A DNA stretch of 64,000 nt from a virus: IMG/VR virus record IMGVR_UViG_3300044632_001218, one strand, 5' to 3'. The notes under the pieces are model-generated. The model searched no databases, had not been told where the DNA came from, and was given only the letters and a program-made list of their open reading frames with translations. Both the position numbers and the translations under genes were made by a program. Within the stretch, counting starts at the first letter, position 1, and every line of letters begins with the position of its first letter. Below, piece after piece: positions 2,544 to 30,556 of this stretch.

Positions 2544-2774
2544 ATGAAGGAGAACAAAGTGTTTCAACTTGAGTTATGCCAAGAGGATGCTAATCGTATT
2601 CTCAAAGGTGTATGGGAGTTGCGGATACATGAGTATAACAAAGCAAGGCAAGAAGATCCCAATGGTGAACAGGAAAGTGCCTGGATTGAGTATGATTATG
2701 TGACAGCACTGTGGGGAGAGTTAGATGAGAAGTTTTCCACAGTTTATGATAGTTTTCCACAGAAAGTGTGTTGA
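2544..2774 (+). CDS. Small hypothetical protein (76 aa); 3' end overlaps the first two DnaA boxes
   Basis: ORF track; last gene of the early cluster. Confidence 0.65.
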   Translation: MKENKVFQLELCQEDANRILKGVWELRIHEYNKARQEDPNGEQESAWIEYDYVTALWGELDEKFSTVYDSFPQKVC

Positions 2775-3115
2775 TTTGTGGATAAATTAAATGTGTTAAT
2801 AAATGTAATAGTGTGATGTGTATTGTTTGTGTTAATTAGTGTATGTACCTGTAAATGTGTCTAGTTGTTGTGATCTTGGCCTCCAGTGTATCACAAACTC
2901 TCTGAAAAGTCAAGCACCCCCAGTCACTCCTAGGACTGGCACATGACCCCTTGACAGTATAGTTTTCCACAGGTCTTAAGTGTGAATCAGTGAGAACACA
3001 GTGCACCACTGGAGTTATAACAAATGACAGTCAATTTGCCTGTGGAAAACTATAGTCAAACCTGTGGAAAACCCTGTGGAAAACTATACAAATTGTGGAA
3101 AAATAGTTTTCCACA
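2733..3115. repeat. Array of nine DnaA-box 9-mers, candidate origin or DnaA-binding locus: TTTTCCACA at 2733(+), 2753(+), 2963(+), 3107(+), 3041(-), 3063(-), 3075(-), 3094(-); TTATCCACA at 2777(-)
   Basis: Each 9-mer read directly; all fit the DnaA consensus TT(A/T)TNCACA; mostly non-coding DNA. Confidence 0.85.
2885..2913 (-). promoter_or_regulatory. Leftward sigma70-type promoter TTGACT-17-TACACT with extended -10 TG
   Basis: Reverse complement of AGTCAA (2908-2913) and AGTGTA (2885-2890); spacer exactly 17 bp. Confidence 0.6.
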
Positions 3116-3162: not shown

Positions 3163-3191
3163 TTGACAGTATTTGTGATGTGTGTTATAGT
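3163..3191 (+). promoter_or_regulatory. Rightward sigma70-type promoter TTGACA-17-TATAGT with extended -10 TG
   Basis: TTGACA 3163-3168, TATAGT 3186-3191. Confidence 0.7.
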
Positions 3192-3302
3192 GAATTGGCA
3201 GTTATTTGTGCCCTTGAGGGTTGGTGGGGGGGTGTAATGCGAAAAACCACAACTACCCTAACCTACAGAGGTGACAAACAGCGAGAGCGATATCAAGATG
3301 AA

Positions 3303-3436
3303 TAAAAAAAATTTTCCCCAGGTAAAAAATTTCCTAGACTTTTTTGAGGAATTAGAGTATATTGTGCTTTGCCTGTGTGCCACTCTAAGTATTATTGGAA
3401 CCCATTATATAAAAAAATTTTCCCAGTATAAAAAAT
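3303..3436 (+). repeat. Two copies of TA7-8TTTTCCC(C)AG..TAAAAAAT (3303-3330 and 3410-3436)
   Basis: Direct reading; paired A-tracts about 19-20 bp apart in each copy. Confidence 0.65.
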
Positions 3437-4319: not shown

Positions 4320-5075
4320 ATGGCAAAAGGATTTACTGTAAAAGCAAAAGCACCTTCAGAAGAACAACAACCCCTGTTTAATAGAGAAGAGTGTTTAGAA
4401 AAGATTAGGGGTAAGACTATTGTATTCTGTCTTCCAGGTCGGGGCGTATCATATATTTTCCTGAAGAACTTCGTGCAACTGTGCTTTGATTTAGTACAGG
4501 CAGGAGCATCTATTCAGATTTCACAAGATTATTCATCAATGGTAAACTTTGCACGTTGTAAAGTTCTTGGTGCTAATGTTCTTGCAGGTCCTGATCAATT
4601 ACCTTGGCAGGGTAAACTTCAATACGACTACCAGTTGTGGATTGATTCTGATATTGTTTTCAACACTGATGCATTCTGGGCATTGGTTCAGATGGACAAG
4701 GATATTGCTGCAGGTTGGTATGCCACAGAGGATGGCAGAACTACCTCAGTTGCACATTGGTTAGAAGAAGAAGACTTTGCCAAGAATGGTGGCGTCATGA
4801 ACCATGAGATGGTAGACACCATTTCCAACAGAAAGAAACCATTCACTGTGGATTACACAGGCTTTGGTTGGGTTCTGGTTAAGCATGGTGTATTTGAGCA
4901 CCCAGACATGAAGTACCCTTGGTTTGCCCCTCAGATGCAGGTCTTTGAGTCTGGCGATGTTCAGGATATGTGTGGTGAGGATGTTTCCTTCTGCTTAGAG
5001 GCAAAGAAGGCAGGTTTTGAAATCTGGTGCAATCCACAGATTCGTGTAGGTCATGAAAAAACAAGAATCATTTAG
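4320..5075 (+). CDS. GT-A-fold (GT2-like) glycosyltransferase conserved in T4-like cyanophages
   Basis: DxD motif LWIDSDIVF, NFAR, GFGWVL, GEDVSFC and VGHEK motifs; ATG 4320. Confidence 0.75.
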   Translation: MAKGFTVKAKAPSEEQQPLFNREECLEKIRGKTIVFCLPGRGVSYIFLKNFVQLCFDLVQAGASIQISQDYSSMVNFARCKVLGANVLAGPDQLPWQGKLQYDYQLWIDSDIVFNTDAFWALVQMDKDIAAGWYATEDGRTTSVAHWLEEEDFAKNGGVMNHEMVDTISNRKKPFTVDYTGFGWVLVKHGVFEHPDMKYPWFAPQMQVFESGDVQDMCGEDVSFCLEAKKAGFEIWCNPQIRVGHEKTRII

Positions 5076-29179: not shown

Positions 29180-30556
29180 ATGTTAAATCCATTTTTCATA
29201 CAGGGAACATCAGGGGAACAAGGTCTTGTACAAGACCTGATAAATGAACAATTAAAAATGTATGGCATAGAAATTTACTATATGCCAAGAGAATTCGTGT
29301 CTGAAGGAAAAGTTATAAAAGAAGTTTTATATTCAAAATTTACTAAAGCATTTCCAATAGAAGCATACTTGGTAAATTATGAAGGTTTTGACCCAAATAG
29401 TATTTTGATGAGTAAATTTGGAGTAAGAGTTACTGATGAAATGACTCTTATCATTTCATCAGAAAGATTTGAGACATATATTGGCGAATTGATGAAAGAT
29501 ATTACCTTAGTAAAAAATGCTACAAGACCTAATGAAGGTGATTTACTTTATATTCCATTGAGCGATAGCTTTATGGAAATTAAGTATGTTGAAAATAGAA
29601 AACCATTCTATCAACTTCAAAAGAACTATGTTTATGAATTGAGATGTGAAGTATATGAAATAGAAGATGATGAAATAAAAACAACAATTGATTCTATTGA
29701 TAAGTCATTGAAAGATGTAGGATATGAATCCACATTGAATATGTCAGGAATTGGAGTAACTGCAACTGCAACTACAACACTTGTTACTGGTGGGGTTCAA
29801 ACTACAGAAATAATTAGTGGTGGATACAGATATACTTCTATTCCAACATTTAATGTTTCTTCTCCCATTTCTGGCACTAAAGCAACGCTTGTTGGTGTAG
29901 TAACCAGTAAAATGGGATTACTATCATCAAAGAGTTTAAGTGATGTATACATTCAGAATCCAGGATCTGGATACAATCCAAGCAAACCCCCAATAGTGGA
30001 TGTTTCTGGGGGTGGTGGTTATGGTGCTCAAGTTAGAGTTGGAATTGCAACCTCTGGTAGCATAGGACCCATTCAGATAAACAATTCTGGACAGGGTTAT
30101 GTGCTTGAACCAGTAGTAACAATATCAAGTCCAGTTGGAGGAGGAGTAACTGCTGTTGCTAAAGCTTTCTTGAATAATGTTGGAGGTATTTCATCTATTA
30201 GAATTGTCAATGCAGGATATGGTTACACACAAACTCCAACAATCACTGTTTCTGCTGGAACCACTGTTTCTACTGGCAACTTTGTCTTTAATGAAACAGT
30301 AACTGGTTCAATATCCAATGCAGTTGGAACTGTTAAAAATTGGGATTCAGAAACCAGAGAATTGAAGGTGACAGGATTTGGAACTAACTTTATAGTTGGT
30401 GATATTGTAGTTGGTGCAGCATCAAGTGCAATTTACATAGTTTCAAATAGAGAAGAATTTGAAACAACATCTGCATATGATAATTCTGACATTATTGAAG
30501 AAGAAGCAGATAATATTTTAGATTTTAGTGAAATTAATCCTTTTGGAGAAGTTTGA
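29180..30556 (+). CDS. gp14: Neck protein gp14 with an internal beta-repeat insertion
   Basis: LNPFF.QGTSGEQ.LVQDLINEQLKMYG and LDFSE.NPFG motifs. Confidence 0.92.
   Translation: MLNPFFIQGTSGEQGLVQDLINEQLKMYGIEIYYMPREFVSEGKVIKEVLYSKFTKAFPIEAYLVNYEGFDPNSILMSKFGVRVTDEMTLIISSERFETYIGELMKDITLVKNATRPNEGDLLYIPLSDSFMEIKYVENRKPFYQLQKNYVYELRCEVYEIEDDEIKTTIDSIDKSLKDVGYESTLNMSGIGVTATATTTLVTGGVQTTEIISGGYRYTSIPTFNVSSPISGTKATLVGVVTSKMGLLSSKSLSDVYIQNPGSGYNPSKPPIVDVSGGGGYGAQVRVGIATSGSIGPIQINNSGQGYVLEPVVTISSPVGGGVTAVAKAFLNNVGGISSIRIVNAGYGYTQTPTITVSAGTTVSTGNFVFNETVTGSISNAVGTVKNWDSETRELKVTGFGTNFIVGDIVVGAASSAIYIVSNREEFETTSAYDNSDIIEEEADNILDFSEINPFGEV

Follow-up and report, generated by a model that had tools for sequence, protein, structure and literature searches.

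Why does a lytic T4-like cyanophage, a member of a group that is the textbook case of DnaA-independent replication, carry a dense array of DnaA boxes, and what would host DnaA do there? The array lies in a window of 64,000 nucleotides, the whole stretch of DNA analysed, to which all positions below refer, and the window is part of a contig of 107,814 bp (CheckV completeness 51%), in which psbA, sought for host assignment, is absent. DNA and protein searches both match the contig to Kyanoviridae phages of Synechococcus and Prochlorococcus, and we found in it gp41, gp43, gp44, gp45, gp62, UvsX, UvsW, gp55 and gp23. The presence of gp41, gp43, gp44, gp45 and gp62, listed as phage-encoded in the original prediction, is thereby confirmed, and the T4-type replisome set (gp41, gp43, gp44/62 and gp45, together with UvsW) is the phage's own, as a T4-type origin would call for. 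Nearly all contig genes lie on one strand. The array had been placed at the boundary between the early-gene region and the late/replication genes; this holds for the left side, where small ORFs stand behind repeated sigma70-type early promoter cassettes, but the right neighbours are small ORFs of no known function followed by the baseplate genes gp25/gp6, and the replication genes are about 49-59 kb away. The early-promoter cassette is repeated at 23-106, 644-723, 1416-1499 and 1700-1783, and consists of an inverted repeat TGTGCCA-N10-TGGCACA upstream of the -35 element and a palindrome over the -10/+1 region. An ORF at 4320-5075 (phrog_1574; no Pfam match, annotated as a glycosyltransferase by some records) is highly conserved in these phages and marks where their early region ends.

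We found that nine exact 9-mers lie within 383 bp, all of them at the coordinates and on the strands first reported. Two TTTTCCACA boxes, at 2733..2741 (+) and 2753..2761 (+), are inside the 3' end of ORF 2544-2774; the former is otherwise found only in the nearest relatives, L158 and L097, and the latter is the convergent partner, at 24 bp, of the TTATCCACA box at 2777..2785 (-), which sits at the far end of an AT-rich tract, about 95-100 nt downstream of the start of a predicted leftward promoter, P_L. P-SSM7, S-CAM22, ACG-2014a and S-ShM2 likewise have, next to the AT tract, a +/- pair with a separation of 23-24 bp. The TTTTCCACA box at 2963..2971 (+) faces the main pack at 78 bp and shows 92% column identity across 13 relatives; a spacing of 78/79 bp or 56 bp is conserved. 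The main pack, at 3041..3115, comprises four minus-strand boxes at 3041, 3063, 3075 and 3094 (spacing 22, 12 and 19) and one plus-strand box at 3107, and the description of a five-box pack ending in the inverted pair 3094/3107 was correct; among relatives, the copy number of the pack shifts in steps of about 11 or 21 bp. Further right, an A/T tract at 3301..3330 (+) holds the one-mismatch form TTTTCCCCA at 3312-3320, which by its letters is probably a weak tenth box; perfect boxes occupy the equivalent place in P-SSM7 and S-CAM22, and TTTTCCCCA is a common variant within host origins.

This clustering is far above chance. A rough estimate of 0.005 copies of TTTTCCACA in the span had been given, and we compute 0.0049 per 383 bp. 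All eight TTTTCCACA of the 107,814-bp contig fall inside 2733-3115, with a probability of ~1e-18 for at least eight in any 383-bp span of the contig under a base-composition model, and several perfect copies in excess of chance are what a cyanobacterial DnaA-box cluster should show. The count of TTWTNCACA over the available contig, proposed as a check that the cluster stands alone, gave six further occurrences, all elsewhere. An apparent depletion of boxes outside the array (6 seen versus 13-24 expected, P ~0.02 at the highest Markov order) was set aside; box-less relatives show box densities similar to those of this contig outside its array.

The boxes are of the type used by cyanobacterial hosts. 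TTTTCCACA is the cyanobacterial DnaA box, bound cooperatively by domain IV of cyanobacterial DnaA (PMC4674748). Across 42 non-redundant phage arrays we count 265 perfect TTTTCCACA and a single TTATCCACA, with AG-box-GGTT flanks and same-strand spacings mostly of 11/12 and 21/22 bp, and 100 of the 123 same-strand spacings are in helical phase. Host origins, which were fetched via dnaN and not by pattern, have the same word, the same flanks (G-box-GGTT) and spacings of about 11 and 21 bp, in a comparison made at phylum level and with the literature, covering two host families with mostly larger genomes than picocyanobacteria; host-like flanks and helical-turn spacing are again marks of a cyanobacterial DnaA-box cluster. 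A pattern of three TTTTCCACA occurs in at least 106 viral contigs, this locus accounting for 57, versus one viral contig for a control word with one base changed. The corresponding triple TTATCCACA pattern is found in at least 120 contigs of other phages, none of which has this locus's anchor gene, and for this reason the box form, to judge from these patterns, follows the host group. A search for the DnaA DNA-binding domain (Bac_DnaA_C) found none in this contig, itself 51% complete, or in five complete phages with boxes, which makes host DnaA very probably the protein that binds the boxes. Their original assignment as host DnaA boxes is thus well supported by the exact cyanobacterial form, the flanks, the helical spacing, the conservation and the absence of a phage DnaA domain.

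The array is embedded in a wider module. The A/T-rich, C-free tract noted beside it is present at 2761..2847 (87 bp, the third-longest C-free run in the contig) and is a candidate unwinding element; in duplex stability its AT-rich part ranks within the weakest 3% of windows of 40-60 bp, and it is not the easiest-melting DNA in the contig. The earlier description of the locus, which recorded boxes and AT tract, had missed two flanking promoters, predicted from the letters and backed by conservation. P_L, a predicted leftward sigma70-type promoter (2885..2913, -; TTGACT-17-TACACT with a TG extension), is antisense to the early genes, and P_R, a predicted near-consensus rightward sigma70 promoter (3163..3191, +; TTGACA-17-TATAGT with a TG extension), begins 47 bp past the last box. 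The -35 and -10 elements of both show 85-100% identity in 13 relatives, versus 45% for the P_R spacer; P_L is kept with or without boxes (S-SCSM2R, P-TIM68, Bellamy, Sf-FS3, S-SCSM1, RN05-S and L009), and the P_R -35 is invariant, at 46-49 bp from the last box in 10/14 near relatives and at 67-71 or 90 bp in the rest. The leftward transcript through the AT tract is predicted to be unstructured (fold z-score -0.09), no stable RNA fold was found for either predicted transcript, and Rfam gave no credible match to a structured RNA in the array and core region. A predicted promoter followed by an AT-rich unwinding element, over about 100 bp, is the anatomy of a T4-type R-loop origin. Between the two promoters, at 2925..2956 (+), lies a degenerate copy of the early-promoter inverted repeat (TGTGCCA...TGGCACA) with an orphan TTGACA (repeat families D4, I5 and I6). 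Beyond P_R there are a G-rich stretch with a run of seven G (3217..3234, +), in whose place relatives have a G- or C-rich run, and a conserved core 17-mer, AACTACCCTAACCTACA (3251..3267, +), which is family-wide and independent of the boxes; the core region as in S-ShM2 is matched by 294 phage records and is conserved across cultured Kyanoviridae. The core motif was considered as a series of DnaA-trios and rejected, its CTA repeats recurring every 5 bases and not every 3.

Conservation at the same locus in related cyanomyoviruses had been proposed as a check, and we observe it in part: box-bearing relatives exist, but the array is optional, and boxes are absent from 56/69 loci fetched by the core motif alone, without regard to boxes. 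In this unbiased set of 69 non-redundant loci, boxes are enriched 13-fold within 1 kb of the core, and 38/39 have the TTTT form. When the P_L module was detected by profile and boxes were scored within 400 bp of P_L, boxes were present at 16/31 loci with the module and at 2/31 without a detected P_L (Fisher P 1.6e-4, for loci that are not fully independent). About half of the loci are without a detectable P_L module, and about half of the module-bearing loci are without perfect boxes. The boxes peak 85-250 bp left of the P_L -35, in or just beyond the AT tract, and since the distance from the P_L module to the core varies from 0.3 to 3.6 kb, they follow P_L and not the core. Among cultured phages, P-SSM7, S-CAM22, S-ShM2, ACG-2014a, S-SM2, P-TIM68 and DSL-LC03 have 2-7 boxes at the locus, and S-SCSM2R, Bellamy, Sf-FS3, P-SSM2, S-SRM01 and S-SSM7 have zero. 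In most near relatives the AT tract contains a box pair; in this genome, L158 and L097 the pair is missing, and boxes stand immediately to the left of the tract, which on comparison of the sequences is turnover with retention, this genome having lost the in-tract pair. On the anchor-protein tree, at least three box-status changes are forced by well-supported branches and 6-7 occur on the best tree, whose sampling is biased to pattern-fetched loci and whose bootstraps are unsettled, and the order of events was not inferred from it. To judge from these sequences, the array is apparently under selection where present, and optional. L009, whose anchor protein is 87% identical, keeps the module with every box degenerate. 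Over L009:690-1500 the boxes have degenerated in concert, each now with one or two mismatches, and the stretch between the promoters has gained a GIY-YIG ORF (987-1334); in L011 the decay of the boxes is partial.

The best explanation, in our assessment, is host DnaA input to a transcription-primed candidate origin. In T4, oriF and oriG consist of a promoter with an AT-rich unwinding element downstream and are R-loop-primed, and oriE, which relies on an early promoter, carries iterons with no assigned role (PMC3016281). Because P_L and the AT tract share the oriF/oriG anatomy and the transcript would be unstructured, we read the module as a candidate transcription-primed origin, a status for which we would give even odds; that the array is an optional DnaA docking site on such an oriE/oriF-like origin has, in our estimate, a probability of about 40%. 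The docking site would be an add-on to a control module common to many Kyanoviridae, in which, where the early-gene block ends, an antisense sigma70 promoter fires into AT-rich DNA. Host RNA polymerase would use P_L as soon as infection begins, and the resulting unstructured transcript would keep the tract open and serve as primer for the leading strand, which is how T4 oriF/oriG and probably oriE work. From the tract's far end and from the phased pack upstream of P_L, bound DnaA could tune this priming step, through altered promoter firing, through a stall of the transcript at the tract end, or through easier opening and helicase loading, and no DnaA-trio filament melting of the oriC kind would be involved. 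Of the two functions originally offered, the opening of a first-round origin by host DnaA is thus retained in a weaker form, with DnaA aiding or regulating a promoter-plus-AT-tract origin, and dropped as oriC-style opening, for which the trios are absent.

The locus resembles T4 oriF, oriG and oriE in having a promoter that runs into an AT-rich tract, an oriE-type host-style early promoter with a repeat array beside it, and T4-like replisome genes; it differs in that its repeats are host DnaA boxes, that it has no MotA-type promoter, and that it is a candidate origin by sequence alone (PMC3016281, a review of T4 origins in which DnaA is mentioned 0 times). By analogy, the array would serve as an accessory site for DnaA, of the kind found at phage origins or promoters. 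Host DnaA is likewise accessory at P1 oriR and at the DnaA boxes of pBR322, where it flanks an AT tract or aids helicase loading near an RNA primer, and the pBR322 DnaA box is dispensable. In lambda, DnaA stimulates the origin-activating promoter pR, again as a host accessory acting on an origin-activating transcript (PMC7466680). These are temperate-phage or plasmid replicons on the host replisome, whereas this phage has its own; equipped with helicase, polymerase and recombinase, it may be able to do without the host. Against an origin stand a flat GC skew at the site, the L009 module with all its boxes degenerate and the many modules that are box-less. The estimate is held at only about 40% because replication from the site is a prediction from sequence, the AT tract is only moderately weak, and a G-free RNA such as the P_L transcript makes a weak RNA-DNA hybrid and is a poor R-loop former. 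The wider proposition, that a lytic T4-like cyanophage lineage couples its own replication start to host DnaA at the antisense-promoter/AT-tract module, setting the timing or strength of a transcription-primed origin, is somewhat more tentative.

As its sequence stands, the array is not a copy of oriC or a member of the oriC family, and the term oriC-like does not apply in the strict sense. It shares with the cyanobacterial oriC upstream of dnaN (PMC4674748; PMC8287927) the word TTTTCCACA, the G-box-GGTT flanks, 7-12 boxes, the 11/12- and 21/22-bp spacing and an AT-rich neighbour, but it is without trios, convergent, without dnaN, optional and flanked by phage promoters. In host origins, a tandem box is followed by CTA repeats, the DnaA-trios of the basal unwinding system (PMC8287927). 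A search for a box, a spacer of 0-16 bp and then at least three DnaA-trios found none in the phage cassette (best score 6, with one consensus base, only loose every-third-base matches and no CTA repeats), compared with a median score of 9 and clear CTA repeats in one host control family and trios in 30/30 origins of a second. The orientation layout is opposite to that of host origins, convergent neighbour pairs making up 55/201 in phage arrays versus 1/352 in host origins, and the divergent two-arm layout next to dnaN is absent. Cumulative GC skew, a check that had been suggested, runs through the array without inflection, a weak test because nearly all contig genes are on one strand. A true oriC mimic, at which host DnaA alone would open the DNA and load the host replisome for the first round, would account for the box number, word and spacing, which equal those of host origins, and for a 29-49-bp stretch of the pack that aligns at 90-100% with host box clusters; given the missing trios, the convergent neighbours, a host similarity limited to the boxes and the dispensability of the array in relatives, we consider it very improbable. 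A captured host oriC was also rejected, the similarity to host DNA being confined to the box pack.

Other roles for bound DnaA have to be weighed against an origin. Placed between the divergent P_L and P_R, DnaA might act as activator, repressor or roadblock with no origin at all, which would tie the early-to-later switch (antisense early shut-off and P_R firing) to the host replication state. The main pack indeed lies between two predicted promoters, and its fixed 46-49-bp distance to the P_R -35 in most near relatives would, on the sequence, fit promoter control equally well; the pack also stands ahead of an ordinary early promoter in DSL-LC03, L092 and L121, and cyanobacterial chromosomes have similar 3-4-box intergenic clusters away from dnaN. 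Yet this reading offers no account of an AT tract that is conserved and has boxes within or behind it, and beyond the near clade the next promoter lies at widely differing distances. Transcription control only is unlikely. The second function offered originally, a datA- or DARS-like sponge in which the boxes of multiplying phage genomes would soak up or inactivate DnaA and thereby keep the host from initiating, is possible but fails to explain the tie of the boxes to an antisense promoter. Each phage genome brings nine perfect boxes, as many as a whole host oriC (7-12) and compared with 38-105 perfect boxes per host genome, and box number drifts from 3 to 12 among phage arrays. Any position would do for a sponge, yet the boxes stay beside P_L; one incoming genome cannot titrate DnaA, and when copies have built up, the host DNA has already been largely degraded or shut down in infections by T4-like cyanophages. 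Further, datA needs IHF, which cyanobacteria are not known to have; DnaA-box clusters of Bacillus subtilis are comparable chromosomal regulators. With E. coli datA and DARS1/2 the array shares a box cluster without an unwinding motif and closely spaced opposite boxes, the pair 3094/3107 being 4 bp apart and the DARS core having three boxes, two of them opposite and 5 bp apart (a comparison of spacing), but those elements are chromosomal regulators, datA and DARS2 depend on IHF, and they are not tied to a promoter-AT-tract module (PMC6868365). We regard titration as distinctly unlikely. It is hardly probable at all that the repeats serve a phage protein as iterons and resemble the DnaA box only by chance. 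T4 oriE has iterons, this contig is only 51% complete, and other cyanomyophages carry phased arrays of different words in the same early region, namely ATCTCGACGAGA, AATCTAGT, GTATAAAGAAT (27/34-bp period) and ACTTCGTG (loci L056, L030, L032, L083:3380-3480, L065, L015, L018 and L063); here, in contrast, word, flanks and spacing are exactly of the host-phylum type, the word changes with host group, five complete box-bearing genomes have no DnaA-type domain, and the one-base control word is nearly absent.

A role at the genome end is suggested by a precedent. A preprint (bioRxiv 10.1101/866236, citing a 1987 report) describes eight DnaA boxes of unproven function in T5-like phages, at the end of the pre-early block, in the injection-stop (iss) region. 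The original prediction knew of neither DnaA-opened origins nor DnaA titration described for T4-like phages, and our literature search, which covered few subscription journals, indeed found no paper on DnaA boxes or replication origins in T4-like cyanophages; the prediction had missed this lytic precedent, DnaA-box arrays in lytic phages being already known from T5 and such arrays being present in many other phage contigs as well. The T5 iss region and our locus both belong to lytic phages and have about eight conserved boxes in repeat-rich non-coding DNA at the end of the earliest gene block. T5, by contrast, is a siphovirus with two-step injection and a long terminal repeat, and its boxes, about half of them non-consensus, form pairs 3 bp apart in two inverted repeats, a layout absent here, where every box is perfect, the spacing is phased and the genome family has been reported to be circularly permuted. 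In this setting, the core could mark a preferred packaging start, with end-bound DnaA tethering, protecting or gating incoming or packaged DNA. Unrelated phages have a box array and then a G-run just before the terminase genes, and among 19 complete records, hand-picked and not re-oriented, four (RN05-S, S-E7, S-PRM1 and S-M1) end at most 600 bp from the core, versus 0.12 expected. These ends are scattered from -567 to +415 and not at one base, metagenome contig ends have no sharp mode at the core, so that assembly breaks may explain the record ends, the cyanomyophage S-SZBM1 was reported as circularly permuted after termini analysis (PMC9146016), the boxes follow P_L, 0.3-3.6 kb from the core, and the terminase gene is about 32 kb from the array. 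A genome-end role is therefore quite improbable, and a sharp packaging cut at the core was rejected, being absent from contig ends. Deposited record ends on or near the core 17-mer were seen in RN05-S (junction on the core), S-E7, S-PRM1, S-M1, G078 and S-SCSM1 (L659/L660, L662, L663, L664 and L356); packaging might preferentially start at the 17-mer, or assemblies might break there.

If DnaA acts at the module as a docking site on a transcription-primed origin, phage replication could be tied to the host cell cycle, and the locus would be a T4-type origin with host DnaA input, placing a replication start in Kyanoviridae, for which none was found mapped in the literature searched. T4-like cyanophages are major killers of marine and freshwater picocyanobacteria, and the analysis supplies a precise candidate module of about 600 bp, together with a natural experiment in which boxed phages (P-SSM7, S-ShM2, S-CAM22, ACG-2014a, S-SM2 and DSL-LC03) can be set against box-less ones (S-SCSM2R, Bellamy, Sf-FS3 and P-SSM2).

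Box arrays were also observed away from this locus, an indication that many phages share the little-studied trait of phased DnaA boxes, with a box form that tracks the host group. Among the at least 120 contigs with triple TTATCCACA patterns, about 25 of 120 have a terminase large subunit gene no more than a few kb from the array, usually at 1-1.5 kb (L418:1467-1700, L477:2725-2800, L397, L412, L413, L423, L434 and others of L392-L511), and in L418 and L477 a G-run follows the array. A group of phage contigs of 32-43 kb from one data set (L111:2942-3070, L093, L113, L124, L137 and L147; GC ~0.55) has 7-9 TTTTCCACA, with the array just upstream of the terminase genes in L111 and several arrays within 200 bp of the contig end. 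A low-GC contig, L509, has four TTATCCACA at 12-bp spacing (1553-1600), apparently inside an ORF, and weak cobT-like and gp6-like matches, and is possibly from a non-cyanobacterial T4-like phage. In cyanobacterial chromosomes, conserved 3-4-box clusters away from dnaN (L228, L245, L246, L294, L305, L215, L221 and L209) have spacings of 21-21-12 in Pseudanabaena and 21-21 near guaA in others, and are candidate DnaA-regulated promoters or titration sites. Finally, the 284-kb contig G047:C1 holds two diverged copies of the whole locus, at 29317-29434 and 239066-239129 (L390 and L389), each with a box array and with anchors 79% and 71% identical to that of the window, and is probably a chimera of two phages.
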